Shown: positions 15,451 to 62,941 of the stretch, piece by piece
Numbering within the stretch: position 1 is the first letter of the stretch
How the letters are laid out: every line of letters begins with the position of its first letter
NCBI GenBank assembly: GCA_963811575.1
Contig: CAWERY010000015.1
Coordinates: 8,325 to 72,324 of the forward strand
DNA from: an uncultured Solibacteraceae bacterium
GTDB taxonomy: Bacteria > Acidobacteriota > Terriglobia > Bryobacterales > Bryobacteraceae
Direction of reading: 5' to 3'
DNA length: 64,000 nucleotides
The notes under the pieces: generated by a model
Databases searched by the model: none
What the model saw: only the letters and a program-made list of their open reading frames with translations
What the model was told of the DNA's origin: nothing
Position numbers and translations under genes: made by a program

Positions 15451-15571
15451 GGGAATGGCCGATCTTACCACGCCCCCACACCGGACCTGCCGGCTGTTAT
15501 ATACTTCCGGAAGCTGGGCATTAGCGGTATAGCAAGGGGATTTCCCGGCAAATCTGGGTCCATCGGGATGC

Positions 15572-18500: not shown

Positions 18501-18860
18501 CAGGCATTCGACCTGCCGGACCCTTCGACGCCGAACGGCGATCGCAATTCCACGGTGGTGGCGCCGCAGGCGTTGTTCCTGATGAACGCGACGCTGGTCT
18601 TGAAATCGACGCACGCCATGGCGGCCAAGCTGCTGGAAGAGAGCGGCGTGGACGATGCCGCGCGGGTGCGGGAGGTCTACGAGCGCGCGCTCGGAAGGCC
18701 GCCGGCGGCGAGCGATGTGGACCGCGCGCTCACCTTTGTGGCGCAGGTGGAGAAGGCGATGGAAGGCCGCGAAACCGATGCCGGCAAGCGCCATCTGTTT
18801 GCGTGGCAGAGCTTCTGCAAAGCGATGTTGTCATCCAACGAATTTATTTACGTGAATTGA
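15572..18860 (+). pseudogene. PSCyt1/PSCyt2(DUF1549)/PSD1(DUF1553) family protein, reading frame broken once (~17672)
   Basis: Signal peptide. Planctomycete cytochrome-c motif CLACHS. DUF1549 motifs (SPIDRFVLAALE, YGERWGRHWLDVARYADSNG). CARCHDHKFDP. After ...AVKQEEGLSE the conserved sequence continues in the +1 frame (AALEAFRELSYAKAGPF...IHLRGSHWTLGEEVPRRFP...SSNEFIYVN). Confidence 0.85.
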
Positions 18861-18869
18861 GGCGTTACT

Positions 18870-28731: not shown

Positions 28732-30036
28732 TTAAGTAGCCTCACGCGACAGGGGTAGCAGTGTGGGCTTGACCGGTTGGCCGTCCGGTAGAGTACGCAA
28801 CGAAATTCCAGCAACTTCGAGAGATGGTGACGCGCCTCCCACGTCCAAGTGGACACGTGCGTTGGCGTCGTCGCTGGTGGGTGTGAATTCCAACTCGAAA
28901 TCCCTCCATTCCGTGATCAGTGCGATGGATTGGTACAGGCCTAGTCCGGTCCAGGGCGCATGGGCCGCGGCGAAGCCGACGTCAATTGTCCGAGGCTCGT
29001 CGGCGCGGGCGCGAAAGCTCACAGCGTATCGCTGTCCGGCTGTCACCGGGTGATACGGCAGGTTGATTTGTATCTGGGACTCGGCCCCGGCGCCTAGCTC
29101 GTCGATTGCGAGGCGAATCGAATTGGGAAGGCCGGACGCAAGCAGTCGCGCGTGGTTTCCTTCGTCCAACCGGAGTTGAATCCTCGCGTCCTCAACGGCA
29201 CGGCATAGCAAGTTCCAAACCGCGGGATCGGTGATGTTTCGAAGGCGCAAATAGGTCGCAAACCAGTTGAGAAAGTATCCGCGAACGGCGTTGTAGTCCC
29301 CCCTCTCCGCGCTGGCCGCATCACAGGAATCAGCGTGAATCCGGTACTTGTCCCATTGTTCGCCGCACACGAAAACGGCCGTGTGAAGATAGATCTTCAC
29401 CAGGAAAGCCTGGTCGTCGTAGAGCTGGAGAATACCCCGAAAATGTTCCTCGAAGCCGCCGACCATGTCGACGACATGACGGCGCACCAGGAAATCGGAA
29501 GGCGGCGGTGTGGTCGCGGGACCGAGCGGATATAGTTTCGAAAGAAGGGACGGCGGATCGAATAAGGTATCCGCCGGGATGCCTGGATCCGGCACGTGGT
29601 CTCGGGTGGCATCCTCCGGGTCTCCCGTCCAGCTATACCAGTAAAGGCTGGCTCCGTAGATCATCCCCGCTTCCGGGTAGCTCTTCATCAAGGCGACCTG
29701 CCGTTCCAATTTGTACGGCAGCCAAACGTCGTCCGAATCTAGGAAAGCCACCAATTGCCCCCGCCCATGCCTAATGCCAAGATTGCGTGACGCGGACATG
29801 CCCCGGTTGCAGTGGGACTCGTGCTCCAGGTAAGCGATGCGCCCAGAAAAGCGGGAAGCATAGGACTGTGCGATTTGGGTACTGGAATCGGAGGAGCCGT
29901 CGTCTACCAGCATCAATTCCCAAGAATCGAAGGTCTGGTTGATGATGCTCTCAATTGCTTCCCGAATGTATTTTTCCCCATTCAGAAAAATCATCACGAC
30001 GGAAACAAGCGGTTCCGCCACGGGCTGGGGCGGCAT
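28732..30036 (-). CDS. family-2 glycosyltransferase with C-terminal CenC/CBM4_9-like beta-sandwich module
   Basis: GT2 motifs VSVVMIFLNGEKY, LVDDGSSD, FLDSDD. The C-terminal 115 aa (28792-29139) are paralogous to modules in three neighbouring genes. Confidence 0.85.
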   Translation of the reverse strand: MPPQPVAEPLVSVVMIFLNGEKYIREAIESIINQTFDSWELMLVDDGSSDSSTQIAQSYASRFSGRIAYLEHESHCNRGMSASRNLGIRHGRGQLVAFLDSDDVWLPYKLERQVALMKSYPEAGMIYGASLYWYSWTGDPEDATRDHVPDPGIPADTLFDPPSLLSKLYPLGPATTPPPSDFLVRRHVVDMVGGFEEHFRGILQLYDDQAFLVKIYLHTAVFVCGEQWDKYRIHADSCDAASAERGDYNAVRGYFLNWFATYLRLRNITDPAVWNLLCRAVEDARIQLRLDEGNHARLLASGLPNSIRLAIDELGAGAESQIQINLPYHPVTAGQRYAVSFRARADEPRTIDVGFAAAHAPWTGLGLYQSIALITEWRDFELEFTPTSDDANARVHLDVGGASPSLEVAGISLRTLPDGQPVKPTLLPLSREAT

Positions 30037-30038
30037 TG

Positions 30039-31514
30039 CTATATCTCCCGTTCACGGGCATCCGGATGGAGGACGACTGCGGACACCTCTACGGAAGTGG
30101 AATCGCCTCCGGCATCGAAATGGATGCGTGCGTCACCATCACTCGCAGTGGGCACCAGCGGAATGCGAAAGGTGCGCCATTCGGAGTCGATGTCGACTAC
30201 AGAATACAAGCCGAGTCCGCACCACGGTTCATGAGCTTGGGCAAACCCGACCGCGAACTTTCGGGGAGCATCCGCGCGGGCCCGAAAAGAAATGTCGTGA
30301 GCGCATCCCGATATGACGGCGAATCCGGGAAGGTTCAGTTGAATATCATAGGCGGTTGAAGTCTGCAGAGCATCGATCTGGATCCGCACGTGATCCGGAC
30401 TTCCGTCTGGAAATCGCAGGTAGGCCACATTACCTCCGGCGACTCGCAGGTCCCACTTGCCGCGGATCAAAACCGGCCTGCCCCCGCCATGGTTTGACGG
30501 CGCCCACGCGGCGGATTCTCGCGAGCCCTCAAGCCACCCCTGCAAGTGCGCGTAGAATTCATCCCTACCCCAGTTACACACCTGTGCCCGGGGAAGCTGA
30601 AAGCGGTCTGCGTCGCGATCGACCGGGCCAGCGACAGTGGCGCAGGCGCACTGAAAACCGCAGCGGCGAACCAACTCCACAGAATCAGCGTTGTTCGCGC
30701 CGTATGGGTAGGCGAAGCTCAACACCGGGCGGTGCAACTCCGCCTCGAGCCGCTCCTTGCAAACCGCGATTTCTGACAGTTGCTGTTCCACACTCAGCTC
30801 GGGCAGCGCGGGATGCGTGACCGTGTGCGCTCCGATTTCGATGAGTTCTCCTGCCGCCAGTTCGGTCAGCTCCGCGGTCGAGAGTCCGCGGTAATCCTCG
30901 CGAGAACGGGCGGAGAGGTTCGCCCATGCATAGAGGGAATCGAGAATCTGAAGGCGTTCCGCGTCGGGCAGCAACTGTAGCAGGCGCCAGAGAGAGGCGT
31001 AAAGAAAATGCCTGGCCGTAGGCGGCTCTTCGTCCGCCTTCCAGGATTGGTAACTTTGCGAGTCGGCAACGGTGTATTCCTGCGCTTCCGTTAGCTCCCA
31101 ACGATGGCTATTACCCTTGATGGAAAGAGAGAGCTCGGGGGGAAGTGGGCCCGGCTCAAGAAAGATCCGGCCCAACGCGTCCCACCAGAGTTCACGCTTC
31201 GAGCCCAGAAATCCGGTGGTTACGAACACCGTGGCAGGAATGCCGTGGCGTTGGAGCAAGGGCTTCGCGGCAAGCAGGTTGCTGGCATAACCGTCATCGA
31301 ACGTGATCGCGACCGAACGCGGCTGCAGTTCGCGAGCGATGACGGCGCGATTGAGCTGCTGCAAGGACAAAGGGTGCGCGTGCTCTTTCAGTACCTCGAG
31401 ATGCGCAGCGAAGTTCGCGGGAGAGACGCTCGACGAAAATGGGTCAGGGCGCCCTTCGCAGACGTGGTGATACATGAGGATCAGGCCTGCCGGAGCCGCG
31501 GCGTTCGCGCTCAC
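30039..31514 (-). CDS. polysaccharide deacetylase (NodB/CE4-like) with C-terminal CenC/CBM4_9-like module
   Basis: NodB-type motifs ITFDDGY and GAHTVTHP...L. C-terminal YDIQLN...FRARADAPR...GFAQAHEPWCGLGLY...EWRTF...DARIHFDAGG (30066-30455). Confidence 0.8.
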   Translation of the reverse strand: MSANAAAPAGLILMYHHVCEGRPDPFSSSVSPANFAAHLEVLKEHAHPLSLQQLNRAVIARELQPRSVAITFDDGYASNLLAAKPLLQRHGIPATVFVTTGFLGSKRELWWDALGRIFLEPGPLPPELSLSIKGNSHRWELTEAQEYTVADSQSYQSWKADEEPPTARHFLYASLWRLLQLLPDAERLQILDSLYAWANLSARSREDYRGLSTAELTELAAGELIEIGAHTVTHPALPELSVEQQLSEIAVCKERLEAELHRPVLSFAYPYGANNADSVELVRRCGFQCACATVAGPVDRDADRFQLPRAQVCNWGRDEFYAHLQGWLEGSRESAAWAPSNHGGGRPVLIRGKWDLRVAGGNVAYLRFPDGSPDHVRIQIDALQTSTAYDIQLNLPGFAVISGCAHDISFRARADAPRKFAVGFAQAHEPWCGLGLYSVVDIDSEWRTFRIPLVPTASDGDARIHFDAGGDSTSVEVSAVVLHPDAREREI

Positions 31515-33466
31515 AAAGCAGCTTTCTGTGCGCGCAGGCCGATGGTTACCTCGTACCCGCGCTCAGCGAAGTCCAGCTCTTCACGCGTCAACTCGCCGGC
31601 GGAGATTCCGTACAGAAACGAGGCCGCGGAGAGCACGTTTCCGTAGGCATCGATACGGATATTCTCCGGTGCGAACGCTTCCTCGAACAGGCGCCTGCCG
31701 GATAACGGTGTGAAGCTCCAGTACCAGTTGTCGCACCAATCTCGATCGTTGTTCTGGCTGATCCCTGGAAAAGTAGTGAGCACCACGCCGCCGGGCTTGA
31801 GGATTCGGTACAGGGTTCGGATCACGGCGCGAAGATCATAGATGAGCTGTAAGGTCTGAGTGAGTACGATGCAATCGAAGGTGCCGTCCGGAATATGGGG
31901 AGCGTCGGTGAGGTCGCCCACGATCGTCGCCAGCGGATTGCCTTCGACAACGTGCAGGACGTCGCTCCGCGTAACGCGGCTGCCGCCGAATCTTCGCGAG
32001 TAGGTGCTGTCTTCGATTTCCATGACGCGTCCGCGTATGTCCGCCGCCTGGCGAGCCAGATAATTCTCGATGTAATAGCGGTCAATCGGCAGGCCCCGAT
32101 CATATCCCCACATCCGGCTTATCGGAGTAACGCGCCGCAGAGTTCCGAACTGCAAACTGCCGGGCGCGGGGGTGCCGTCGGCGGCCCGTAAGGTGACGTC
32201 CGCCAGTTCGACCGCGGCAGCGTCGCCTGCCAGATCGAAGTGAATGCGGGCGTTCTCGTCGTCGGCAGTTGCGGTAAATTCTTCGTCAAAGGTCTGCCAG
32301 TCCGGCCCAAGCGAGATGCTTCGATAGAGGCCAAGTCCATCCCAGGGTTCGTGGGCCATTGCGACACCAAGATACGCCAGCCTGGAGCTGTCGGCGCGCG
32401 CCTCGAAGGTCACCCGGTAGGGATGGTTGGCAAGCACGCGGAGCCGCGGTTGATTGAGTTGTATGTCGTAACTGGAGCGACTCTCGTTGTTCTGAATGGC
32501 TACCCGGATCGCTCCCGGTTTTCCGGAGAGACTGGTCAAGCGCGCCATGTTCGGGGGCGCGACACGGAACAGCCAGCCGTCGAAATGCGTGACCTCCTGC
32601 GGTGCACTGCGTGTTTCGAACGCCTTGTGCAGGGCAGCGCGGACCGCGGGGTCGTGATTTCCCCGATCATTCAGATGTCGCTCGAGCCACTTCAGGAAGC
32701 GGGAGCGGACGGCATCGTACTGCCCTGTCTCAGTCCCTACCGAAAGACACGACTCGGGATGAATGCGGTATTTGTCCCAGCACTCGCTGGAGACAAAAAT
32801 GTGCCCTTGCAGATAGACCTTGGCCAGAAAAGCCTGATCTTCGTACAAACCGCGGAACTCCTCCTCAAACCACATCGACTCTTTCAGCGATTCCCTCCGA
32901 ACGAGGAGATTTGACATGGAGGGAGCGGTCGCCTGGCCAAGCGGATACAGCTTGAGAAGTAACTCAGGCGGGGCGTAGAGGGTTTCCGTTTTGACTCCGG
33001 GATCGGGAATGAAGTCACGCTGGAGATCTTCGGGTTTGCCGGTCCAACTGTACCAATACCGGCTCAAACCAAAGATCATAGCGGCCTGGGGCTGGGCCTC
33101 CATGATTTCGATCTGGCTGCGAAGGCGATGGGGCATCCATACATCATCGGCGTCAGAAAGGCCAATATGCGAGGGCACGCGCGACTCCAGCACTCCGGGA
33201 TGCCGGAATTCCGCGGTTGCTGTGCCCCTCATGTTCCAGGTATCGCGCTCGGGCGGGATTCTGGCTGACCGACTTTTGTGCGATCGCGGTACTCGAATCG
33301 GAGGAGCCGTCGTCTACAAAGAGTAGCTCCCAGTTCGAGTAGGACTGCGCCAGCACACTCGCCACAGCCTCTTCCATGTAAGTCTCGGCATTAAAGAAGG
33401 GCATTACGATCGAGACTAATGGTGTTCCGGATGAGATCGGATTCAGAGGCTTTCCGCTGCCGGCAT
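31511..33466 (-). pseudogene. tri-domain GT2 / CBM-like module / class I SAM-methyltransferase, one clear frame break (~33172) and one tentative (33445-33463)
   Basis: N-terminus PLVSIVMPFFNAETY...LFVDDGSSD...NRGIPASRSAGVARA shifts to HIGLSDADDVW. CBM-like module at 32183-32575. C-terminal methyltransferase (VMEIED...FDCIVLTQTLQLIYD...LKPGGVVL) at 31514-32152. The ATG overlaps the wzt stop (TAATG). Confidence 0.7.
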
Positions 33467-34231
33467 TAAACGGTCGCGTGGCTCCATGTCTGGACGTCCG
33501 CGTCCGCCAGGTATTGGGGGATGACGATTCGGGTAGGGCCGTAGGCGGCAACACGCCCGCCGCGCAGCCACAAGGCGTCTTCACATAAAGATTCCACCAT
33601 GCCCGCATCGTGGGTAACGAGGACAATCGTGCAGCCTCCCGCCTTGAGCTGCCGGATGCGATCCAGGCACTTGTGTTGAAAGGCCACGTCGCCGACCGCC
33701 AGGACCTCGTCAATCAGCAGGATATCCGGCGCGGAATGAATGGCGATGGAGAAGGCCAGGCGCATCTGCATGCCCGATGAGTAACATCGCAAGGGGCTAT
33801 CGATGAAATCATGAAGCTCCGAAAATTCGACGATGGCATCGAAGCGTTCCCGGACTTCCTTCTTCGTGAGTCCGCCCACTACGCCGTTTACGAGGACGTT
33901 CTCGCGGCCTGACAATTCGGGGTGAAAGCCGGCTCCGAGATTGAGCAGCGCGCCGATCCGGCCTTCGATTTCGATCACGACCTTCATCGGGCCGGCCGAC
34001 ACCGCCGATCAGGCGCAGCAGAGTGGATTTGCCCGCTCCATTTCGCCCGATGACGCCGACGGTCCTGCCGGCGGGAATTCGCAGGTTCACTTCGCGCAAG
34101 CCCCAGAACTGTTCCGCCGGCAGCAGTTTTCGAAAACCGCGAAGCAGCGCTTCGTGAATCGTGCCGGGCGTGTCGGTATGATAGCGGCGGTACTTCTTGC
34201 CTACGTCTTTAATGAAAATTGGAATTCCCAC
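33466..34231 (-). pseudogene. wzt: polysaccharide/O-antigen-type ABC exporter ATP-binding protein (short form, no C-terminal binding domain), frame broken once (~33980)
   Basis: GTG start overlaps the wzm stop (TAGTG). Walker A GRNGAGKSTLL, then a shift, then GRIGALLNLGAGFHPELSGRENV, signature SSGMQMRLAFS, Walker B ILLIDE. About 254 aa once restored. Confidence 0.85.
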
Positions 34232-35022
34232 TACAGTTCCTCCACAAAGCGATGCCGTGCCAGATTGAATGCGGTGCAACCCAGCGTCAGTACAACCACC
34301 GAGAGGCCGGCGACACCCAAGAGCGGAATAGGGTCGGGCCACGTCCCGCGCATCAGAACGGCGCGGTATCCATCGAGGATCATGGCCACCGGGTTCATGA
34401 GCATGATCGAGTGATAGGGCTCCGGGATCGTGCTGACATCCCAGAAGACGGGGGTCAGATAGAAGAATAGAAAGAGACCGATGCCGAGAAGATACTGAGT
34501 ATCGCGAAATCTTACTTGCAGCGTGGCGACGATATAGGCCAGGCTCGTAACAAATAGAAACTGGACGAGGATGATCAGGGGTAGTGCAGCCAGAGACGGA
34601 TTCAGCCGGTAGCCATCCCTGACCAGAAACACGGCCAGAATGGGAAGGGCCAGCAGGAAGTGCACCAGGTGGGAAAGCACCGTGATCACCGGCAGAAGCG
34701 GAAGCGGGAAGCCGACTTGTTTCACCAGGTCCCGGTTATCGACGACGGTCATGGCGGAAACCAGCAGCGATGCCTGGAGCCAGGTCCACGGCAGGATTCC
34801 GGTAAACAGGAAGGTCGTGTAGTGGGGAATGTTCAAGGGTACGATGCCGTTGAATACCACGTACAGCACCAGCAGCTGCGCCAACGGTACCAGGAGGGAC
34901 CATGCGATTCCGAGAAGCGAGCGTTTGTAGCGCAGTTTGAAATCGCGAGCGACTAGTATACGCACCAGATCATACTTATGCCGCCAGCTATTCGACTGAT
35001 TCCGAACTTGATATCGATTCAC
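34231..35022 (-). CDS. wzm: ABC-2 type polysaccharide export permease
   Basis: 263 aa with six predicted TM segments. N-terminal RDFKLRYKRSLLGIAWSLL motif typical of Wzm/TagG permeases. Confidence 0.85.
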   Translation of the reverse strand: MNRYQVRNQSNSWRHKYDLVRILVARDFKLRYKRSLLGIAWSLLVPLAQLLVLYVVFNGIVPLNIPHYTTFLFTGILPWTWLQASLLVSAMTVVDNRDLVKQVGFPLPLLPVITVLSHLVHFLLALPILAVFLVRDGYRLNPSLAALPLIILVQFLFVTSLAYIVATLQVRFRDTQYLLGIGLFLFFYLTPVFWDVSTIPEPYHSIMLMNPVAMILDGYRAVLMRGTWPDPIPLLGVAGLSVVVLTLGCTAFNLARHRFVEEL

Positions 35023-35032
35023 CTTAATCCCC

Positions 35033-36463
35033 TCATCCTGCCATTTGCCAAACCCCTATTTTTCGCCGGGTCAATAACCGGATTCGTTCATGAAAGCGTT
35101 TTTCGCAGACAGAAACATCGAAGGACCGGCGAATTTTTTCAGCGGCGGCCCGGCCCATGCGTTGCCGTAAACCAGCGTCGTTCCGTAAACTCGAGATCGC
35201 TGCCGCCAGCGATTTTGCATCGCGCTGCGGAACGATTAGACCGTCCTGCCCGTGATCCACGACTTCGACGATGGAGCCGGCATCGGTAGCGACCGCCGGC
35301 AGGCCGGTTGCCATGGCCTCCAGGAGCGCGGTGGGAATTCCATCCTTGTCGCCGCTTTCGGTTTCGACGAAGGGCGCAATGAACAGGTGCGCCTGCTGCA
35401 GGAACTGCTGAATCTCCGCACTCGAACGCCGGCCTTCCAGATGGAACGCGTTTCCGATTCCGAGTTCGAGAATTTTCTGGTCGAGCGCACGGGCGTACTC
35501 GCGGCTGGGTTCGTTGTCGTCCACGCCGCCGAGTATGTGCGCCGAAACCGGGACGCCCGAATCGATCAGGTGGCGGACGGCTTCGGCCAGGTAGAGCAAG
35601 CCCTTTTTGGGCTCGATGCGGCTGACGCAGACCAGGCGAAACGGAGTGCCTTCGGCCGGCGCGCTACGGAGGGTTGCGGGAAAGCGCCTGGAATCGATCG
35701 CGTTCGGTTTGACGAGAATGCGGTCGGGGTCCACCGCCGGGGCGATTGCCATGAGCTCCCGTTTAATCCGGTTCGAAGTCGCGATTACCAGGCCGCACTG
35801 CCGGATGTGGAGTGCTACGACTTTCAGGGCGTAATCGTCCAGCATGTGGTCGGCATAGCAGCTCACGCCGCGCGGGATATCGAGGAGATACGACGCGAAC
35901 AGCGTGAACAGCGCGCCTTCGTAGAAGAAGTAGGAGTGCAGGTAGTCCGGCCGGCAGGCTTCCACGGTTCGTGTGAAGGCAAATGCCTGTTTGAAGTGAT
36001 AGTGGTTTTGAAGTTCCTCGGGCGTTATGCCGGATGCTTCACAGACCATTGCGACCAGGCTGCGAACCTTTTCCGGCATGCGTTCGCAATAGTAGGCATA
36101 GTCGCGCTCGGACACGCTGTAGTGTAAGAACAGTTTGCGCTTGGAATGCCAGACCCGTGAGAATTGCCGGGGCAGAAAGCTTCGCGGATTCAATTTGGAA
36201 TAGAGGAAGCGCAAGCGGAAGCCGCCGCGTACGAGCTCCGAAAGTTCCTGGTAGACAAAGGTCTGGGAGTAGATGGGAAACTCCCAGCAGGCGGTGGAAG
36301 CTACGCGAACGCCGCTGCCGAAGGCTGGAATCCAGCGTTCCACCGAAGGCGGAAGCGCTGAAACCGGTGAAGGCGGTGCGCCGCGGTTTCCTCGTCGGCG
36401 CCCAGCGGAAAACCTGCCGGCGGGCCATCTGGCCTGGAGTTGTTGAAGCATCTCTTCAATCAC
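35033..36463 (-). CDS. family-4 (GT-B) glycosyltransferase
   Basis: C-terminal EPKKG...GDKDGIPTALLEAMATGLPAVATDAGS motif (E-x7-E region). GTG start overlaps the upstream stop (GTGA). A later start (GTG, ~aa 41) is possible. Confidence 0.8.
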   Translation of the reverse strand: MIEEMLQQLQARWPAGRFSAGRRRGNRGAPPSPVSALPPSVERWIPAFGSGVRVASTACWEFPIYSQTFVYQELSELVRGGFRLRFLYSKLNPRSFLPRQFSRVWHSKRKLFLHYSVSERDYAYYCERMPEKVRSLVAMVCEASGITPEELQNHYHFKQAFAFTRTVEACRPDYLHSYFFYEGALFTLFASYLLDIPRGVSCYADHMLDDYALKVVALHIRQCGLVIATSNRIKRELMAIAPAVDPDRILVKPNAIDSRRFPATLRSAPAEGTPFRLVCVSRIEPKKGLLYLAEAVRHLIDSGVPVSAHILGGVDDNEPSREYARALDQKILELGIGNAFHLEGRRSSAEIQQFLQQAHLFIAPFVETESGDKDGIPTALLEAMATGLPAVATDAGSIVEVVDHGQDGLIVPQRDAKSLAAAISSLRNDAGLRQRMGRAAAEKIRRSFDVSVCEKRFHERIRLLTRRKIGVWQMAG

Positions 36464-38854
36464 CCAGGCCGCCCGTCATTGGCCGCGCCGTCGGTCGCGG
36501 CGCCCGCCTGGATCACTTCCGGGGCCTGCTCGACCGCTCGAAGCACGACCGAGGTCAGATCGACTCCAAGCGCCCGGCCTCCCAGATCGAAGTGAATGCG
36601 GGCGTCTTCGTCATCTTCCAAAGCGACGAACTCCTCCTCAAAAGTCTGCCATTCCGCGGTCAGACGGACCGTGGTATACATGCCCAGGGTTGTCCAGGGA
36701 TCGTGGGCCTTGGCGAAGCCCACGCCAATCTCGCGGGGCCGTTTGGCCCGCGCCCGAAAGGCCACCGTATATCGAACTCCGCCGGCCACCTTGAGGCCGA
36801 GGCGGTTCAGTTGAATGTCCCAATTGGTTTTGGTTTCCGCTTTGGTGATGCCGATTTTGACCATCTCGTGGTCTTCACGCGGATAGATCAGGCTTGCCTG
36901 GTTGCGGTCACCGACGCGGAGGTGCCAGCGGCCTTCGAGCGCGGGATCGGCGAGAGTGTCCGCGCCGAGTGCGGGCTCCGGTGCGGCCGACAGTTCCGTG
37001 GTGGCGGGTTCGGGTTCGCGGCGCTTCGTGACGCGCAGCCACGAACCGAGCCGCATCCAGGTATCGTGTTGCAGGTCTTCGATCAGCAGCGCGCGTACGG
37101 TTGCAGCTTCGCGCCACTTGGACAGTTCGCCCGAAACGTATTCGACCTGCTGCTCCAATTCCTGAGCCCGTCCTCGCACGGCGTTCAGTTCCAGGCCGAA
37201 TGAGTTGCCATAGCTGTTCGAGTTCGCGAATGCGGGTGCGAGCGCCGGTGAGTGCCACTCCAACGCCTGTTCCGTGCTGCTCGAGCTGGTGAATGCGGGC
37301 GCGCGCGCCGGTGAGTTCCAGGGCTAACGCCTGTTCGTGCTGCTCAAGTTCTTGGATGCGTGCCTGCCCGCCGGCCAAATTGAGATCCATTAAAATTACG
37401 CGCTGCTCCAAACCTAAAATTGTGCGGCCGGCGCCGGCCAATTCCTCGATGGCCGTTGCGCGGCTGCGCTCGAGATGTTCGCTGTGCTGCATGGCAGTCT
37501 GCAGTTGCGCCGTTAGGGCGGCTGTCCGTGTTTCGAATTCATGTAGTTCCCGCTGCGATTGTTCTTTCGCCAAGGCCAGCTCTGCTACCTGCCCGCTCGA
37601 GGCTTGCAGTTCAGCGCGAAGTTTGGCGGTCTCGGCCGCCAGTTCCGCGTTACGCCGTTCCCACTCCTGGGTGGAGGCACGCCACGAATCCCGGTCTGCC
37701 GTCAGCGAGGCAGAGCCTTCGGTGATTCGCGCGATGGTTTCCTGCAAGGCGGCGGCGGACGCCTCCTCATGATCCATCACATCGGCCCAAACCGGCGAGT
37801 TCCTAAGGATCAGCTTTTTCAACTCTCTCAGGGAGTTCTCAGCCAAGTGGGCAGTTTGCGTGTGCAATTCAAGCGCCTTCAGAAAGTCGGCCGCCGGCTC
37901 ACTGATGCGTCGCCAAAGGTCTTCCCAATCCTGCCGCGCAAGACACTCAGGGAGCGGGGCCGCGTCGAAAATGCATTGTGCGATGGCATTCGGATAGAGG
38001 CCGGTATACTGCTCACCGCCAACCAATTGCAGTAGCCGCGCGAGCATCCTTTCCGGCGCCAAGTAATAGACCTGCGCACCAGGAAAGTAAGTAGTACTGC
38101 TGGCTCTCTACGGTCGAGCCGGTAAGGCCATTCGCATACTGCGGCAAGGGATTACGGACTCTCGGGTCTGGTCCGTGGCCCCGACGCAGTACGGTAAGTC
38201 CGTCGCGAAGCATTTGTTCCGCGTCCAGCGAGGCGGAATGCGGCATCATTCGATAGTACGCAAGTACCTCCGGAACGGCGCCAAAGGTGGCGCCGCAGCG
38301 AGCAATTCTCTGCCAGAGGTCCCAATCGGGAGACTTTCTGAGACTGATATCGAATGATCCGGCTGCCTCTACCATCGACCGCCGGACCAGGCAGGCGTGT
38401 ACCGGGAAGGCGGCGCGGCGGGCCAGGACCGGGAACAGATCGCCGGTTGGCGGCCTATATTCTTCAATGAGTTCCGCTCCATTTTGCGCTACCCGGGCCC
38501 AACCGCAGTGCACGGCGTCCAGCGATGGATCCGCGTCAATCGCGGATGTGAGCCGTTCCAAATAGCATGGCGAAACCCAGTCATCGGCATCCAGAAAGAG
38601 AAGCCACTCAAAGCGAGCGTGGGAAATGCCGGTATTCCGTGCGGCGCTTTCTCCTCCGTTTGGCTGGGAGACGACGCGTATCCGGACATCGCGCTCCGCC
38701 AAAGCCTCCGCGATAGCGCGGGTAGCATCGTGCGACCCGTCATCCACGATCACGATTTCCCAGTCCGTTGCGCGATTGATTCTCAATCGACGAGACTGCG
38801 GTCCATCAACGTGGTAGCGGCGTTGTAGGCGGGGATGATAACACTTACTTTCAC
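36460..38854 (-). pseudogene. GT2 glycosyltransferase / long coiled coil with 21-aa repeats / C-terminal CBM-like module, three frame breaks
   Basis: GTG 38854 with GAGG 9 nt upstream. KVSVIIPAYNAATTL, break at ~38786, then DWEIVIVDDGS...LDADD. Break at ~38038 into a helical region. Break at ~37196 inside the repeat array. CBM-like module at 36538-36927 (WDIQLN...FRARAKRPR...GFAKAHDPW...DARIHFDLGG). Confidence 0.7.
37149..37464. repeat. five tandem 63-bp units (21 aa, 3 heptads) inside the coiled-coil coding region
   Basis: GCTGCTC(C/G/A)A... recurs at 37149, 37213, 37276, 37339 and 37402. The spacing is 63 bp, except 64 bp for the first unit, which holds the frame break. Protein units follow L.L(T/A/N)G(A/G)(R/Q).RI..LEQ(H/L/Q). 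Confidence 0.8.
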
Positions 38855-39361
38855 GGAAAATTGCCTCGTACAACTCTGATGGCTATCAAAATGGGACGAT
38901 TCGGAAGGGGCACTCCAATGATCGGACTGCCATGCCGGTTAGCCATTAAAGGTTCCGAAATCTCCCATCGCATTCTTGTCGAAAAGTTCGCATTGCTGCC
39001 CATTTTTATTCCAACCCTCACAGATATCCGAGGTGCCCCATCGTAAATCGCTTGAGCCGGTGAACGTGCAGCTCTCATGTTCCCAACGTGCTTCAGTCAG
39101 GGAACGCTCCCAAGCGATGATGTGGTACCCGATTAAAGGCACTTGCCTTGCCAATCATTTCCCGAGGAGAAGAATCGGGCTTGGCGCGATGCCGTAACCT
39201 TTCTTGACGGCGTGGCGCCGAGTTAGTCGCGAGCCTCGCCGCTGCCGGACTGGCATTGTTCGATGCCTTTATTCCTGGCAGTGAAACTGCTAACCCGCTA
39301 CTTAAGGCAAATCCGCCGCAACTGGTGTTACCCGGCAGCGCGGCACAAACACGCAACCTCA
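38855..39361. promoter_or_regulatory. divergent intergenic control region between the two arms of the glycan locus
   Basis: About 500 bp between a minus-strand GT2 start (38854) and a plus-strand GT4 start (39362). Visibly more AT-rich than the flanks. No specific promoter boxes could be assigned with confidence. Confidence 0.4.
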
Positions 39362-41392: not shown

Positions 41393-44070
41393 GTTCACGC
41401 GTAACGGCAGGGGACGAGAGGCCGCTGGTTTCGGTTGTCCTCCCTGTCTATAACGGCGAGCGCTTCGTCGCCCAGACGATTGAATCCGCGCTCCGCCAGA
41501 CCTATCGGAACCTCGAAATCATCGTAGTGGACGATGGATCGACCGATCAGACCGCATCGCTGATCCAGAGTATTGCGGCGCGCGACCCGCGGGTTCGAAT
41601 CTTTCACCAACCCAACAGCGGCGTAGCGCGGGCCAGAAATCGCGGGCTGGAAGAATCACGCGGCGAGTTTGTGGCGCCGTTGGACTCCGACGATCTCTGG
41701 GATCCCGCCAAGATCGAAGAGCAGGTCCGGATCATGCAGCAAGGCGGCGACGCGATTGGCCTGGTCTACTGCTGGTGGGTTTGGATCGATGAGAAGGGCG
41801 TGATTCTGGACCGGTCGCCTTCGTGGGAAATCGAAGGGGATGCCGGTGACCTGCTGCTGCAGGTGAACTATACGGGTAACGCGAGCGTACCGTTGTACCG
41901 GCGCAAGTATCTGCAGGAGGTCGGCGGATACGACGAGAGCATGGAGCAGCGAGACGGCCGGGGATGCGAGGATTGGGACGTCGCGTTAAGAATCGCCGCG
42001 CGGTACCCGGTCGCGGTCGCACGCCAACTGCTGGTGGGCTACCGGCGCTTGCCGGATAGCATGTCCACGCACTGCGATGAGATGTGGCGGTCGCGGCAGT
42101 TGTTGATCAGCGGGGCAGTGGAGCGAGATCCGGATTTAGATCCGCAATTACTTCGGCGTTCCACCGATCAGTTCGCGCTATACGTGGCCGGAGTACTGTT
42201 CCGATCGGGCGCGTATGTACGATCGTTCGGCTGGGCGGCGCGGGCCTGGCGGACGGGCCTCATCTTCCGCGTTTTGCCTTACGGGTTTCGCGCACTGGCC
42301 AACGGCGCATTGTCTCGCCGTTCGCTTTCCAAGCAAGTGATGACGGCGGGAGCCGGACTGGACAGCAGCGCCATTCCCGCAGCTCTGATTCCCTACGACC
42401 GCTTGTATCCGGCGCAAGCCGAAGCCGGCCCGGTTCGGAGTTCCGGCGTGCTGCAGTCCAAGATCGTGCAGTTCTTATTCGTAATTCTGACCTTTCTTTT
42501 CGTGGCGGGACTGCACCGGGATGACGATGGTTTGGCGTTTCAGGGGGACGCGCCCCGGCATGCGATCAATGGCCTGTTCTGGTATGACATGGCTACCAGC
42601 GGCACCACGGACTTCATCGGTTTTGCGACGCGTTATTACGCGCGTTATCCGGTGATCAATCCCATCACCTACCCGCCGCTTTTCTACCTGCTGGAAGGCT
42701 GCGCGTTTCGGATTTTCGGGCCTACGCCCTACGCGGCCAAAGCGCTGATTTTGCTGTTCGGGATTTTGGCGGGTTGCTACAGCATGGCGTGGGCGAGGCG
42801 CTGGGTAGGACCGGTTTACGGCTGGACGGGGGTCTTTCTCGCCCTCTTGCCCGGCGTTGTTGTGTGGTCGACCACGGTGATGTTGAACGTGCCGGCCCTG
42901 GCCCTGGGGATGGCGAGCCTCTACCACGCGCGGCGCTGGGTGGAATCCGGCGGCGGCAGGCGAGCGGTAGTGTGCGGCGCCCTCTGTGCGGCCACTCTGT
43001 TCACCTACTATCAAGGCGGCATCGCGATTGCGATTGGCCTTGTGTGGACGCTGTTTTTACGATCAAGCCGCAACCGCTCCCGGCAGGCCCTGGCAATTGC
43101 CGGGGTAGCATTACTTGCCGCGATACCGGTGCTGCTGGCGGCCGCATTTGCCCCGATGTTCCTGCAGCGCAATGTGCCGAGCCTGGCGAAGTTGATGGGA
43201 GCAGAAACCTTCACCTTTTACCTATCCAGTTTGCCGGCGTTGGTGGGTGCGGCGCCCTTAGCGCTCGGTACGCTCGGGATTGTGCTCGGGATACGCAGTG
43301 CTGTGTGGAGGAAGGAAGCCCAACTGGTCGCGCTGTGGATCCTCATACCACTGACGGCATTCTCCCTTTTGCCTGCGAAAGACTCGCGCTACGTGCTGAT
43401 TGTTGCCCCGGCCTTCTTAGTGGGAGCGGCGATCGGGATCGCCTCCCTGGCCGCGCAATACCGGGCTGTCTGGCAATCCGCAGTCTGGCAATCCACTGTC
43501 TGGCAATCCACGGTCTTAATCGCGATGCTCGCGTTGGGCGCCTGGAGTGCATCGCGAGTTCCCACACTGCACAAATCCGGCTTCCGCGCGGTGGCGTTGT
43601 ACCTGCAGCAGCACGCTCCGGACGAAGCCGTTCTCTACGACGGATACCATGACGGGCTTTTCGGATTCTATCTGCGCGCATCGGATCCGGGTTTCAAGCG
43701 CAGGCTTGTGTTGGGGCAGCAGGTGCTTTATCGTTTCGGACCAGCCACGACCTTCGACTGGGTGGAGACTGTGAACGCCGATTCACGAGCGGCGGTGGTC
43801 CGGTCGCTGCAGATGGAATCGGGCTGCCGGTGGCTGGCAATTGAAGTGGGAGCCAATTCGGAATGGGCGCGAGGGCAGCGTCTGTTGCGAGATGCAGTGA
43901 GAGGGCCGGAGTTCGAACTGGTGCGGACTTTTCCCGTGATCGCGCCGAATGCGACCCGCGTGGATCTGTACCGCCAGGTGGGAGCGGTGGCGCCGAAATC
44001 CACAATCGATCTGAAAATGACTTCGCTCGGCGAACACATTTTTCGCGGTGTTCAACCGATAACCAGATAG
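41389..44070 (+). CDS. fusion of GT2 glycosyltransferase with ArnT/PMT-like (GT-C) polytopic membrane glycosyltransferase domain
   Basis: TTG start overlaps the previous stop (TTGA); an upstream ATG is less likely. GT2 motifs VSVVLPVYNGERF, VVDDGSTD, LDSDD. Then at least 9 hydrophobic segments with a YPPLFY-type loop, as in GT-C enzymes. Confidence 0.75.
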   Translation: MSSRVTAGDERPLVSVVLPVYNGERFVAQTIESALRQTYRNLEIIVVDDGSTDQTASLIQSIAARDPRVRIFHQPNSGVARARNRGLEESRGEFVAPLDSDDLWDPAKIEEQVRIMQQGGDAIGLVYCWWVWIDEKGVILDRSPSWEIEGDAGDLLLQVNYTGNASVPLYRRKYLQEVGGYDESMEQRDGRGCEDWDVALRIAARYPVAVARQLLVGYRRLPDSMSTHCDEMWRSRQLLISGAVERDPDLDPQLLRRSTDQFALYVAGVLFRSGAYVRSFGWAARAWRTGLIFRVLPYGFRALANGALSRRSLSKQVMTAGAGLDSSAIPAALIPYDRLYPAQAEAGPVRSSGVLQSKIVQFLFVILTFLFVAGLHRDDDGLAFQGDAPRHAINGLFWYDMATSGTTDFIGFATRYYARYPVINPITYPPLFYLLEGCAFRIFGPTPYAAKALILLFGILAGCYSMAWARRWVGPVYGWTGVFLALLPGVVVWSTTVMLNVPALALGMASLYHARRWVESGGGRRAVVCGALCAATLFTYYQGGIAIAIGLVWTLFLRSSRNRSRQALAIAGVALLAAIPVLLAAAFAPMFLQRNVPSLAKLMGAETFTFYLSSLPALVGAAPLALGTLGIVLGIRSAVWRKEAQLVALWILIPLTAFSLLPAKDSRYVLIVAPAFLVGAAIGIASLAAQYRAVWQSAVWQSTVWQSTVLIAMLALGAWSASRVPTLHKSGFRAVALYLQQHAPDEAVLYDGYHDGLFGFYLRASDPGFKRRLVLGQQVLYRFGPATTFDWVETVNADSRAAVVRSLQMESGCRWLAIEVGANSEWARGQRLLRDAVRGPEFELVRTFPVIAPNATRVDLYRQVGAVAPKSTIDLKMTSLGEHIFRGVQPITR
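43468..43515. repeat. in-frame 15-bp tandem repeat x3.2 (GTCTGGCAATCCNCN) encoding VWQS(A/T)
   Basis: gtctggcaatccgca / gtctggcaatccact / gtctggcaatccacg / gtc. Lies within the membrane domain of the GT2-GT-C fusion. Confidence 0.9.
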
Positions 44071-44073
44071 CAA

Positions 44074-47792: not shown

Positions 47793-47879
47793 GTCATCCG
47801 GCGCGGGGTTGAAGTCACCCGGGCCGACCGTTTGCAGGAGCCGCAAAATGCCGCGCTACCTGAAGACCCTCGCGCGAGA

Positions 47880-50183
47880 TTACTCCGCCTTGGCGGCGAG
47901 TGACACAACGACTGGCGGAGTGAACGCGCTCCACTGATCCCGGCAAGCGGCGGCAAAGGGATAGTCCGGCGCCAGAGCCAAGGCGCGATGCACGTTTTCC
48001 ATCGCCGCAGCTTTCTCGCCGGCATAGAACTGTTCGGTCGCCAAATGGGTGAGAAAAGCGGGGCTGTGGCTTAAGCTGGCGGCCAGTTCGGCCAACACCG
48101 GCAGATGCGTTCCCTGGAGACCCTGGGCAGTCCAGGCCCGGAAAAGCAGACATAGAGTCCAATGGACGGTCGATTCGTCGAGTTGGAGTGTGCTCAAAAC
48201 GGCGAGTGCTTGGGCAGCTGCTTCTTCGTATCGCGCTTCGGACAAGGCGATCTCAACTCCCAACAGCCTTCCCGAGGGAAAATCCGGTGAGATCAAGAGA
48301 ATCTGCTGCAAGGCAAGGTTGGCCCCTTCCATGTCTCCCAACCGCAGGCGCGCGAAACCCAGAAGTGTCGGGGGGTATACCGATACCGCGCCTTCGATCG
48401 ATATACATCGGTCTGCGAGCTCGCAAGCCATTTTGAAATCCCCTTGGCTCATTGCCTTCCAGCCTCGACCACAGAGAATATGATTCACACTCTCCATCGA
48501 CTTCAGATTGGTTTCATCGATCCCACCGGCGACGACTTCAGCTCGCAGCTTCAGGGACTCTTCTAACGGGCCATCGATCAGATACTTGCGATAGAGCGCC
48601 TGTAAGACGCGGTGCCGGTTAAAGGGTTCCTCCCTGGCCATCCGGCCCCGGAGCAGTATCTCCGCTGATTTCAGGGGAAATGACTCTTCCGCGTAGTCCG
48701 AGTCTATGCCGCAAGGTCCGAAGAGAGGCTTAAGGGGCATGAAGCTTACGGTAGTGCTGTATTGGACGTCTTCGACCTGTTTCCACAGATCAGGACGGCT
48801 GTCAAAGATTAGCGGCAGGCAGTGTGCGTAGTGAAAACGGAAATCCTGCAACACAATTCGGGACCGTCCCGGAACGAGGTGACGTGCGAATCCGTTGAGA
48901 ATCGCATTGGCCAACTCCCAGCTCTTTGCAGAATCGACGAAGAGGATCTCAATGGGCCCGCCGTCCCAGGCTGCTTCCATGAGGTCGAGTTTCCTTGGCT
49001 TGATCCAGGAGGCGTAGTCGGATGTTTGTTTCAAATAAAACGGCAGGAAATCTTCACCAATCTTCCAAACCGGACCGGCCTGCGCAGTCATGTAGTCTTC
49101 CCAACGAAAGAGGTCCAGGCTATGGATTTCGGCAGTAGAGTTCCGCCGGCGCAGTCCTTCAGCAAGGGCAGCGCTGCTGCTTCCGAGCCAGACGCCCAGC
49201 TCCACGATGGCCCCCCAGCCTTCATATTTTTCTTCTGTGAGCCAGATCAGGTATTGCTTCTCATCCTTCGACAGCATTGACGGAATCCGGTCCACTTCAG
49301 CCGGAACACAGACTTGGCTCCACGGTCTCAGCAGAGCCATCTCATCCACGGTGAGGCCGTGATGTAACACCCCAGATGTGAGGCTTTGCTCTTTCCCGGC
49401 GAGTTGGGCGGACAGATACCTCTCATGGAGAATCTTGAGGAAAAAACTTCGCTTGGATGGCTCTTCCCGGTCGATTCTGTCTCTGAGAATGCGATCCGCC
49501 GACTGGAGGGGAAACGCTTCTTCCGAGTAATCCGAGTGGATGCCGGCCGGGCCGGCCAGCGGCTTCAACGGTGTAAATGCCACCGTCCAGCCGTTGTCCA
49601 CATCCTCTACCTCTTCCCAAATATCGGGCCGGCTGTCGAACGCCAAGGGAAGCCAGGGACAATCAAAGCGAAAATCCTGAAGGACGACCCTGGAGCGCCC
49701 GGGCACAAGGAAGGGACCGAAACCGCGAAAGATGGCGTTCAGCAGTTCCCAGCTCTTTGCAGCATCGACGAACAGTATCTCAATCGGCCCTTCGTCCCAG
49801 CGGTAATCCCTCAGATCCTGCTTCCGGACGTCGATCCACGGGGCATAAGGGCCGATTTCCTGCGTGAAAAGATGAAGAAAATCATCGTCCTGATCAAGCC
49901 CGGTTGAAGCGAGTGGTTCCATATAATCGGGGTCCCACTGGAAGAGGTCAAAGCTGCGGACCCGCTGGTGCACTCCGCGGCGTTTGAGACCTTCGGCCAG
50001 TGCAGCGCTACTGCTTCCAAGCCAAGGTCCAAGATCTACGACGGCGCCCCATCCTTCAAATTTCTCCGACGTCAGCCAAGTCAGGTACTGTTTTTCTTCC
50101 GGAGTCAGCATGGAGCGCATGCCCGTGATGAAGTCGGGCAATGCGATGTTTTTCCAAGGCCGCGGGGCGCGCGTTATTTTCAT
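47880..50183 (-). CDS. paralogous protein with two tandem TylF/Methyltransf_24-like modules followed by TPR repeats
   Basis: Module 1 at 49419-50141 (EEKQYLTWLT...VVDLGPWLGSSS...ILFVDAAKSWELL). Module 2 at 48579-49301 (DEKQYLIWLT...IVELGVWLGSSS...ILFVDSAKSWELA). The C-terminal TPR region is collinear with the gene at 45303. Confidence 0.65.
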   Translation of the reverse strand: MKITRAPRPWKNIALPDFITGMRSMLTPEEKQYLTWLTSEKFEGWGAVVDLGPWLGSSSAALAEGLKRRGVHQRVRSFDLFQWDPDYMEPLASTGLDQDDDFLHLFTQEIGPYAPWIDVRKQDLRDYRWDEGPIEILFVDAAKSWELLNAIFRGFGPFLVPGRSRVVLQDFRFDCPWLPLAFDSRPDIWEEVEDVDNGWTVAFTPLKPLAGPAGIHSDYSEEAFPLQSADRILRDRIDREEPSKRSFFLKILHERYLSAQLAGKEQSLTSGVLHHGLTVDEMALLRPWSQVCVPAEVDRIPSMLSKDEKQYLIWLTEEKYEGWGAIVELGVWLGSSSAALAEGLRRRNSTAEIHSLDLFRWEDYMTAQAGPVWKIGEDFLPFYLKQTSDYASWIKPRKLDLMEAAWDGGPIEILFVDSAKSWELANAILNGFARHLVPGRSRIVLQDFRFHYAHCLPLIFDSRPDLWKQVEDVQYSTTVSFMPLKPLFGPCGIDSDYAEESFPLKSAEILLRGRMAREEPFNRHRVLQALYRKYLIDGPLEESLKLRAEVVAGGIDETNLKSMESVNHILCGRGWKAMSQGDFKMACELADRCISIEGAVSVYPPTLLGFARLRLGDMEGANLALQQILLISPDFPSGRLLGVEIALSEARYEEAAAQALAVLSTLQLDESTVHWTLCLLFRAWTAQGLQGTHLPVLAELAASLSHSPAFLTHLATEQFYAGEKAAAMENVHRALALAPDYPFAAACRDQWSAFTPPVVVSLAAKAE

Positions 50184-50350
50184 TTGACTGTCCTTTCCAC
50201 TCTTGAGTCTTCACTCGGAACATCGGTGGCTTGGCCTAGTAAAACAATATACCTGCTTATCGCGAGAGACTAATAGCCTGGAGTTCCAGGCTGGACAGCC
50301 GGCAGCGGATGCTCGGCCTGGTGGCATAATCAGTTGAGCTAAAAAACTCC

Positions 50351-53300: not shown

Positions 53301-53506
53301 TTGCCGTAGGCCAGTCCGACACGCCGCCGGCCGAGATGCTGAAGGAAGCCTTCGATGGCATGTGCGGCGACACCAAGGCAGCGCTGGCGCGATGGGGAGA
53401 ATTGCTTACAGTTGACGTGCCAAGATTGAACGCGTTATTGGTTCCGCAGGGAATCCCGGCGCTACCCGCGCCCCGAGGAATTGCAGGCGGGTATTGCGGA
53501 CAGTGA
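50351..53506 (+). pseudogene. secreted BNR/Asp-box (sortilin/VPS10-like) repeat protein, three frame breaks
   Basis: Signal peptide MIKTVLLLYAALAASFA. Repeated S.D.G.TW Asp-boxes (KTVDGGQTW, RTADGGKTW, RSSDEGLTW, RSDDGGAHW, RSVDAGKTW, TRDKGMTW, SRDGGAHW, RTDDYGKSW). Frames 2>0>1>2, with breaks at ~50700, ~52145 and ~52756. Confidence 0.8.
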
Positions 53507-62811: not shown

Positions 62812-62941
62812 GCAACTCCCAACGGCGGGTTCAAGATATCTTGGGCCCGCGCCTTTCCTCGTATAGTTTCGGAACTGGCTCATTGATTTCGATGCCGCGC
62901 GCGCCGGCCGATTGCAGCGGCGCCGCTGTTATACTCGCCAG

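Follow-up and report, generated by a model that had tools for sequence, protein, structure and literature searches.

Which kind of glycan assembly pathway is encoded by a 21-kb acidobacterial gene cluster with an ABC transporter at its centre, and how would the enzymes of such a pathway find the polymer on which they act? The locus in question occupies positions 28732-50183 of a 64,000-nucleotide stretch of contig CAWERY010000015.1 (assembly GCA_963811575.1, an uncultured Solibacteraceae bacterium), hereafter the window, and consists of two arms that diverge from a spacer at 38855-39361. Mechanistic models of ABC-dependent glycan synthesis rest on a few enterobacterial and Gram-positive prototypes, in which chain length and export are coupled through a carbohydrate-binding module (CBM) on the transporter subunit Wzt. 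The present locus, from the abundant and poorly studied Acidobacteriota of soil, pairs a ruler-like coiled coil with a transporter that lacks a CBM and with CBM4 modules borne by enzymes. We propose, with a probability of about 60%, that a Solibacter/Bryobacteraceae-type acidobacterium uses it to make a surface heteropolysaccharide, methylated and partly de-N-acetylated, by a Wzm/Wzt pathway.

The assignment to the Wzm/Wzt (ABC-transporter-dependent) class is supported by the presence of Wzm and its cognate Wzt, which are encoded alongside glycosyltransferases (GTs). Domains were called by Pfam searches of the open reading frames (ORFs) and, for genes whose frame is broken in the window, also with the stitched protein and the orthologues from intact relatives (related loci are cited below by L numbers, single proteins by P numbers). 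The searches upheld the GT, methyltransferase (MT), CE4 deacetylase and CBM assignments of the original prediction, and the domain order that it gave for the two arms was borne out on both (Table 1). When the large ORFs of the whole 64 kb were searched with Pfam, no Wzx, Wzy, Wzz, initiating phosphoglycosyltransferase, WaaL-type ligase or outer-membrane polysaccharide exporter was detected. A hydropathy scan of the same 64 kb left no multi-transmembrane ORF unexplained, such ORFs being Wzm, the GT2-GT-C protein described below, Lnt and a histidine kinase only. The earlier statement that Wzx, Wzy, Wzz and an initiating transferase are missing thus holds for the entire window, and a standard Wzx/Wzy set next to the locus, which had been named as the finding that would speak against a Wzm/Wzt pathway primed from elsewhere, was looked for in the flanks and not found. 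In pathways of this class a WecA/WbaP-type enzyme primes a polyprenyl-PP carrier, on which the polymer reaches its full length in the cytoplasm; here the gene for the initiating enzyme must lie outside the window, as must those for any ligase or outer-membrane export component.

In all terminated systems Wzt carries a CBM (PMC11231755), and transporters without one are known from Klebsiella O1/O2 (PMC11231755). Wzt of the present locus is a nucleotide-binding domain (NBD) only, with ABC_tran alone in a protein of ~254 aa, and no C-terminal CBM was detected by Pfam in the two window pieces or in the L168, L002 and L004 proteins. CBM4 modules are found on four enzymes of the locus: the GT2-CBM protein, the CE4-CBM protein, the GT2-CBM-MT protein and the GT2-coiled coil-CBM protein. 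What sets the locus apart is that its CBMs sit not on the transporter but on four enzymes, the coiled-coil protein among them.

Several observations identify the modules. The four window copies and their L004 counterparts share 39-47% mutual identity, and a profile of eight CBM copies matched 1GUI (laminarinase CBM4-2) with E=2.7e-15 and the CBM4-2 of the R. marinus (Rhodothermus) xylanase at ~1e-6. Pfam CBM_4_9 gave 28.3 and 31.1 bits in two copies (cutoff 25.9) and 25.5 bits in a third. In the CE4 protein it is the C-terminal 140 aa that show 39-47% identity to the other CBMs of the locus, and the L004 orthologue (497 aa) matches CBM_4_9; the translation of the window gene also contains the CE4 motifs TFDDG and HTVTH (DD; HxxxH). 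The same GT2-CBM4 architecture is present in homologues of ~435 aa, and an exact-sequence look-up returned no record identical to the 434-aa protein. The triple fusion is read from two window ORFs, 33153-33713 with the N-terminal half of GT2 and 31511-33232 with CBM_4_9 and Methyltransf_11, and its orthologue is intact in L168 (632 aa) and L004 (651 aa). In the AlphaFold2 (AF2) model of P0390, a homologue of the coiled-coil protein, the module forms a beta-sandwich of ten beta strands (residues 642-772, pLDDT ~81-92). By relationship and fold, then, the four modules are genuine CBM4 modules, and carbohydrate binding is predicted for them. Because all four proteins that carry them lack a signal peptide, and because GT2 and MT domains need cytoplasmic donors, the modules are probably cytoplasmic.

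The subtype extends well beyond this locus. A profile search of 1.84 billion representative proteins returned 4,796 clusters, 396 of them at E<=1e-30, and some proteins have up to 19 tandem copies. The giant proteins P0241-P0245 (1,857-2,994 aa), for example, contain 11-19 tandem copies of the same subtype. In a sample of 70 clusters the partner domains were mostly those of enzymes that build or decorate glycans, not hydrolases: GT2 (14), CE4 (8), GDSL/SGNH (6-7), sulfotransferases (6), methyltransferases (5), GT4 (2), UbiA (2) and pyruvyl transferase (1). We found no description in the literature of CBM4 modules on cytoplasmic GT, MT or CE4 enzymes, and the broad distribution of the subtype on cytoplasmic glycan-tailoring enzymes has apparently not been described so far. 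One could envision that such modules are a general organising principle, by which the enzymes that extend and tailor a polymer (GT2, CE4, methyl-, sulfo- and pyruvyl-transferases, SGNH esterases) are held on it by their own CBM while it is still nascent and lipid-linked; in that case the GT2-coiled coil-CBM protein would be a ruler anchored to glycan rather than to the membrane, and the arrangement would take the place of the checkpoint that a transporter-borne CBM provides in the enterobacterial prototypes. We put this forward as a tentative idea that is more likely wrong than right. If the CBMs do bind nascent polymer, this would explain how tailoring enzymes find a polymer in the cytoplasm, and the modules would offer portable targeting devices for glycoengineering.

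The chain-terminating strategy is characteristically marked by an extended coiled-coil protein (Kelly et al. 2024, PMC11231755). Over its entire length, the stitched 797-aa window protein shares 94% identity with P0390 (796 aa), and the gene is collinear, across three frames, with the intact 818-aa protein of L004. The AF2 model of P0390 consists of a GT-A domain (residues 1 to ~230), a helical bundle, a helix at 356-594, a disordered linker and the CBM at 642-772. The helix is uninterrupted over 239 residues and would measure roughly 35 nm if extended; the window protein itself gives weak coiled-coil matches in Pfam. The GT-A domain (GT2) lies at the N-terminal end of the coiled coil and may either terminate or extend chains. 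No hydrophobic or amphipathic tail is present on the protein, whose C-terminus is the disordered linker and the CBM4 beta-sandwich. Homologues range from 674 to 960 aa, a spread of the kind that would be expected of a spacer. A 63-bp tandem repeat at 37213-37374 (minus strand; 2.6 copies, 79-83% matches) encodes 21-residue units of three heptads inside the helix. Larger indels between the window and L001 fall at this repeat, which is a plausible source of variation in coiled-coil length.

Foldseek searches with the two AF2 models, that of P0390 and that of the GT2-GT-C protein, returned GT-A domains only among the 50 matches listed, which bear neither on the GT-C fold nor on any likeness of the CBM to Wzt CBMs. 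TarS and RmlT were among the top matches. In general, the GT-A domains of the locus are closest to GT2 enzymes that act on polymers (TarS, RmlT, WrtF and K4CP).

In the 893-aa GT2-GT-C protein (AF2 model with pLDDT 87.7), a GT-A domain is followed by four helices, a membrane domain (358-722, at least 11 helices) and an alpha/beta domain (732-888). The isolated GT-C part matched Glyco_transf_22 with 26.4 bits (cutoff 23.8) and PMT_2 with 25.0 bits, and PMT_2 was matched in 14 of 21 homologues. Residues D32 and D39, in the loop after the first transmembrane helix, are invariant in the GT-C family, and a profile search of the PDB with this family gave no match. The full-length fusion is found in ~30 clusters. 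We infer that the protein may be a donor synthase and a transferase in one.

From these observations the following mechanism can be drawn. An enzyme encoded outside the window would start the chain on a polyprenyl phosphate carrier, and the GT4 and GT2 modules would lengthen it at the cytoplasmic face. The CE4 and MT domains would tailor the growing or finished polymer in the cytoplasm, and the CBM4 modules would tether these enzymes to it, as has been proposed for the CBM-like domains of TarS. The GT2-coiled coil-CBM protein might act as a spacer or as a ruler-type chain regulator, like WbdD and WbbB. Because Wzt has no CBM, export would not require the transporter to recognise a terminal cap. 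Once the polymer has been exported, the GT-C domain may add a substituent at the outer face of the membrane.

A number of points weigh against this proposal. Characterised ruler systems all have both a CBM on Wzt and a coiled-coil protein whose C-terminus binds the membrane or bears a polymerase; since neither hallmark is present here, the ruler role would hold by analogy only. No GT2 or MT of the locus is singled out as a chain terminator. The CBM4 modules could mediate protein-protein assembly instead, ligand binding being a prediction. The GT2 domain of the GT2-GT-C fusion is nearer to soluble glycan-extending GT-A enzymes than to polyprenyl-phosphate sugar synthases (K4CP at 1e-27, as against 4e-7 for DPMS, 2e-6 for ArnC and 1e-4 for GtrB), and no flippase gene of the GtrA, MATE or SMR type is present in the window, so that the donor for the GT-C domain is left unexplained. 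The window contains neither genes for sugar-nucleotide synthesis nor those for the initiating enzyme, a ligase or an outer-membrane exporter, so that the chemistry and function of the product are conjectural and its final acceptor could be lipopolysaccharide, a capsule-like polymer or a protein. Finally, the coding indels that distinguish the window from its closest relative are clustered in 33153-38802 and not evenly spread, a pattern considered below.

The acceptor bears directly on the first of the alternatives, namely that the pathway glycosylates a protein (of an S-layer or otherwise of the envelope) and not lipid A-core, with export by Wzm/Wzt as in Geobacillus and with the PMT_2-like GT-C domain acting on protein or in the final transfer. 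The GT-C domain does fall within the PMT_2/GT22-like group, but the enzymes of this group move single sugars from polyprenyl-phosphate donors. The lack of a WaaL-type ligase in the window would suit a protein acceptor, and clusters for ABC-dependent S-layer glycans likewise combine wzm/wzt with a TPR protein and with a GT-MT enzyme for capping (PMC2943079), but the locus has no Wzy_C-type oligosaccharyltransferase, S-layer gene or target protein. We therefore consider protein glycosylation unlikely and prefer a surface heteropolysaccharide.

The original prediction treated the GT2-coiled coil-CBM, Wzt and GT2-CBM-MT genes as single ORFs; in the raw window they are not, and the breaks had gone unnoted. 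The coiled-coil gene (36460-38854) is spread over three reading frames by six 1-nt indels (37214, 37258, 37272, 38040, 38773 and 38802). Wzt is split into two frames by a 1-nt insertion at 33980, such that in tblastn aa 1-84 and 81-254 of the L002 Wzt match the window in different frames. In the GT2-CBM-MT gene the window is short of L168 by 1, 1 and 3 nt at 33153, 33164 and 33169, which results in two frame shifts. In the GT4 gene at 35033-36463, a compensating pair of indels (-1/+1 at 36343/36417) garbles ~25 codons.

One possible explanation is that these frameshifts are real and that the locus is decaying, with Wzt, GT2-CBM-MT, GT2-coiled coil-CBM and GT4 as recent pseudogenes. Loss and phase variation are common in surface-glycan loci, and all 12 indels relative to L168 lie within 5.6 kb of the minus arm, with none in 29483-33152 or 39038-43620. 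However, L168 (JGI 3300047319, 14.1 kb), a relative at the level of strain or species, matches window 29483-43620 with 98.26% identity and all of its genes are intact, and 11 of the 12 coding indels, whose positions coincide exactly with the frame breaks, are of a single nucleotide. The collinear L001 locus (88-90% nucleotide identity) is intact at the breaks of the window and broken at different sites of its own; its contig name, contig_11465_np1212, presumably denotes a nanopore-polished assembly, if we read the naming convention correctly. Between the window and L001, the ratio of nonsynonymous to synonymous substitution rates (dN/dS) amounts to 0.025-0.25 for each segment when it is translated in its own frame; the segments past the breaks are no exception (0.03-0.25), and the values for out-of-frame controls are ~1 or more (0.95 to >15). 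Every segment of the locus is under purifying selection. Because L168 is intact, L001 is broken elsewhere and dN/dS stays low past the breaks, the frameshifts are most likely errors of long-read consensus or assembly and not biology, and genuine decay seems to us distinctly improbable.

Genes outside the locus are split as well, which also argues against decay. At 15533-18857 (plus strand), an ORF with PSCyt1/PSCyt2 (DUF1549) overlaps an ORF with PSD1 (DUF1553) in another frame, and DUF1501 follows PSD1 at 18861-20138. PSCyt1/PSCyt2 and PSD1 normally form one protein, so the split is probably a further indel error. To the right of the locus, a BNR/Sortilin-Vps10-like gene (50330-53503, plus strand) runs through at least three overlapping frames (50330-51229, 50652-52307, 52084-52911 and 52742-53503), which suggests further consensus indels. 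Three of the apparent fusion proteins of the raw window are thus frame-broken genes, and homology-guided frame repair should precede any reading of protein architectures from long-read assemblies of this kind.

The organisation is conserved among relatives, of which the closest named ones are Candidatus Solibacter sp. and Bryobacteraceae metagenome-assembled genomes (MAGs). Both arms recur in L168, L001, L004/L086 (~50-70% amino acid identity) and the Ca. Solibacter MAG L087. The best match in a scan of metagenome contigs was 61%, and L168 was reached through a search with the stitched protein. In the relative represented by L002, L004 and L086, the proteins are intact: on the minus arm GT2-coiled coil-CBM (818 aa), GT2-CBM-MT (651 aa), CE4-CBM (497 aa) and GT2-CBM (435 aa), and on the plus arm the extended GT4 (687 aa), GT2-GT-C (895 aa) and MT-TPR-MT (822 aa). 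The L087 locus has an extra gene for an NAD-dependent epimerase/dehydratase. In L086 the place of the convergent gene with two Methyltransf_24-like domains and TPR is taken by two others (16456-20175, minus strand), for a 609-aa protein with a weak CBM_4_9 match and a 615-aa protein with a weak PMT_2 match; the plus arm thus varies at its distal end. An LtaS_N/sulfatase gene lies inside the L086 locus (1792-3768) and a sulfatase+GDPD gene at the edge of the L001 locus (10958-12817), both absent from the window. These genes hint at substitution of the glycan with glycerol-phosphate or a similar group in some lineages.

At greater distance, a core order wzm-wzt...GT2~MT-CE4-GT2 is kept, among the matches listed, in at least seven phyla (Planctomycetota, Cyanobacteria, Bacteroidota, Actinomycetota, Verrucomicrobia, Pseudomonadota and Acidobacteriota, the last including Thermoanaerobaculia), in L006, L008-L010, L013, L014, L017, L018, L020, L024, L027, L028 and L031. 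These loci come from a scan of genome contigs with generic GT2 motifs, which returned relatives from across the phyla and not the nearest acidobacterial genomes. No CBM was detected in them by tblastn, and we identified no characterised system with this cassette. That the order of the cassette is constant across seven phyla, and that its CE4 and GT2 proteins weakly match NodB and NodC, might suggest that the minus-arm core (GT2, CE4, MT and ABC-2 exporter) produces a short modified oligosaccharide for export in the manner of Nod factors (NodC, NodB, NodS and NodIJ), but this is very improbable, given that the scores are far below the cutoffs (19-41 bits against 550 for NodC, 20 against 240 for NodB), that the GT2 proteins are soluble GT-A enzymes and lack the membrane domain that a processive synthase has, that there is no ORF for a NodA-type acyltransferase, and that eight or nine GT modules, a 240-residue coiled coil and four CBMs indicate a polymer.

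The features of the locus are collected in Table 1. The divergent spacer is AT-richer than its surroundings, as had been described, and is presumably the site of both promoters; scans of the spacer and of the convergent gap for sigma-70 promoters and terminators gave nothing above chance, and an Rfam scan of the window gave no match. Relative to L168, the spacer shows a 24-nt indel (38891-38914) and several 1-nt indels across 38860-39037, and L168 has a called ORF of 60 aa there. The genes had been described as joined mostly by overlaps. The packing is indeed tight, and overlaps of 1-4 nt are present at five of the nine junctions (CE4/GT2-CBM-MT, Wzm/Wzt, GT2-coiled coil-CBM/GT4, extended GT4/GT2-GT-C and second plus-arm GT4/MT), that of the extended GT4 with GT2-GT-C depending on an inferred TTG start at 41389; the remaining junctions are gaps of 2-60 nt. 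An ATG overlapping the stop codon of Wzt was considered as the start of the GT2-CBM-MT gene and rejected, as it is out of frame, in L168 too.

The first gene of the plus arm had been described as GT4+GT2-like. Its GT4 part is clear from Pfam; its C-terminal extension is weakly GT-A-like, with 19.5 bits to Glyco_tranf_2_3, below the cutoff of 27. The protein is 99.6% identical to that of L168 and, over its full length, 57% identical to that of L086. At the other end of this arm, the 829-aa MT-TPR-MT protein has orthologues in L086 (822 aa) and L087 (829 aa). The convergent gene with two methyltransferase-like domains and TPR is present as described; residues 8-294 and 286-754 of its product both align to the N-terminal part of the 829-aa protein (58% and 50% identity), and it has an 82% orthologue in the same position in L087. 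PDB searches with both of these TPR proteins gave TPR matches and a weak match to arsenite methyltransferase only, and no protein of the locus reached the equivalog cutoff of any NCBIfam model. The neighbours on either side are unrelated to glycan assembly: on the left PSCyt/PSD1/DUF1501 genes, an amidohydrolase, a MetA-like outer-membrane protein, a HEAT protein and an S41 peptidase, and on the right the BNR/sortilin protein, a hybrid histidine kinase, DUF3738, beta-propeller proteins and an outer-membrane barrel. At 62867-64000 (plus strand), positionally unrelated to the locus, a TPR-rich protein with Glyco_transf_41 (O-GlcNAc-transferase-like) runs off the right end of the window.

Table 1. 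Coordinates, strands and domain evidence for the features of the locus (window positions).
Feature	Position	Strand	Remarks
GT2-CBM4 glycosyltransferase, 434 aa	28732..30036	-	Intact ORF; Pfam Glycos_transf_2 E=6.5e-31, CBM_4_9 28.3 bits (cutoff 25.9)
CE4 polysaccharide deacetylase with C-terminal CBM4, 491 aa	30039..31514	-	Intact; Polysacc_deac_1 E=8.4e-24
GT2-CBM4-methyltransferase triple fusion, ~632-650 aa	31511..33440	-	Start uncertain, 33404-33440; frame-broken in window
Wzt nucleotide-binding subunit, ~254 aa	33466..34231	-	GTG start, 1-nt overlap with wzm stop; ABC_tran in both ORF pieces
Wzm ABC-2 permease, 263 aa	34231..35022	-	ABC2_membrane E=4e-15; five hydrophobic segments; weak likeness to galactan Wzm/RfbD
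GT4 glycosyltransferase, 476 aa	35033..36463	-	Open ORF; Glycos_transf_1 E=6.8e-30
GT2-coiled coil-CBM4 protein, ~797 aa stitched	36460..38854	-	Coiled coil of ~240 residues; spread over three frames
Divergent intergenic region, 507 bp	38855..39361	.	GC 0.538, against 0.599 in the locus and 0.611 in the window
GT4 with conserved C-terminal extension of ~245 aa, 676 aa	39362..41392	+	Glycos_transf_1 E=2e-28, Glyco_transf_4 E=4.7e-17
GT2 (cytoplasmic GT-A) + GT-C membrane glycosyltransferase, 893 aa	41389..44070	+	Inferred TTG start; Glycos_transf_2 E=1.6e-36
GT4 glycosyltransferase, 410 aa	44074..45306	+	Glycos_transf_1 E=1.5e-35, Glyco_transf_4 E=3.4e-21
Methyltransf_24-like-TPR-Methyltransf_11 protein, 829 aa	45303..47792	+	Methyltransf_11 E=7.4e-9, TPR_19/TPR_2, Methyltransf_24 E=2.9e-4
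Two Methyltransf_24-like domains with TPR, 767 aa	47880..50183	-	Convergent paralogue; Methyltransf_24 E=7.8e-13, two stretches

How does the locus compare with known systems? The heavy domain fusion had been regarded as atypical of O-antigen loci. We do not retain this view, as multi-module proteins are the norm in ABC-dependent systems (PMC11231755, PMC2943079), where WbbB, WbdA, WbdD and ORF6 of Klebsiella O7 are examples from O-polysaccharide assembly (PMC11231755), and each of the fusion architectures found here recurs in tens of metagenomic protein clusters. With the ruler systems (WbdA-WbdD-Wzm-Wzt of E. coli O9a/Klebsiella O3, WbbB of Klebsiella O12, and O4/O7), the locus shares Wzm/Wzt export without Wzx/Wzy, multi-module GTs, MT modules, an N-terminal catalytic domain before a long coiled coil, and tightly overlapping genes. 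In contrast to those systems, in which Wzt carries a CBM (PMC11231755), Wzt here is an NBD only, CBMs are present on four enzymes, the coiled-coil protein ends in a CBM4 module, and there is no kinase or Kdo-transferase terminator. The locus thus belongs to the ABC-dependent class but lacks two features of the ruler/terminator subtype, the CBM of Wzt and the membrane-binding or polymerase-bearing C-terminus. In having a transporter without a CBM, and in export that would not be gated by a terminal cap, it resembles Klebsiella O1/O2 (O2a), which, unlike the present locus with its 240-residue coiled-coil protein and several MTs, has not been described with a coiled-coil ruler.

Individual enzymes have counterparts in other pathways. 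S. aureus TarS is a cytoplasmic GT-A enzyme whose CBM-like domain helps in polymer binding and processivity (PMC5156392). Together with TarP and L. monocytogenes RmlT, which decorate wall teichoic acid before export by TarGH, it has the order seen here of a GT2 GT-A domain, a helical bundle, a linker and a C-terminal CBM-like beta domain, likewise in an ABC-transporter-dependent pathway. The module of TarS, a trimer, is CBM48/CBM68-like, whereas that of the present locus is CBM4 and also occurs on CE4, on GT2-MT and at the end of a coiled coil. WsaE of Geobacillus stearothermophilus (methyltransferase-GT-GT) is a GT-MT fusion that caps the chain (PMC2943079), and like the GT2-CBM-MT protein it unites a GT with an S-adenosylmethionine-dependent MT in a wzm/wzt cluster, its methylation being the proposed cap; it differs in that its MT is N-terminal and of another family, so that the domain order is reversed here, and in that it has no CBM.

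Periplasmic GT-C enzymes with CBMs that bind the acceptor glycan have been described (PMC11127046). The combination of GT-C and GT2 in a glycan locus, with a conserved acidic loop after the first transmembrane helix, recalls three-component extracytoplasmic glycosylation (GtrA/GtrB/Gtr*, ArnC/ArnT, Citrobacter ORF12-15 and streptococcal GacI/GacL). Unlike in those systems, GT2 and GT-C are joined in a single polypeptide, the GT2 domain is closer to soluble glycan GTs than to GtrB/ArnC/DPMS, a flippase gene is lacking, and the GT-C family has no solved relative detectable by sequence. Lastly, the CE4 protein is similar to Caulobacter HfsH and rhizobial NodB, cytoplasmic deacetylases whose substrates are nascent or lipid-linked glycans, in being a CE4 enzyme without a signal peptide, with intact DD and HxxxH motifs, inside a glycan operon. 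It differs from them in bearing a CBM4 module, in scoring far below the cutoffs of their models, and in lying in a Wzm/Wzt and not a Wzx/Wzy context.

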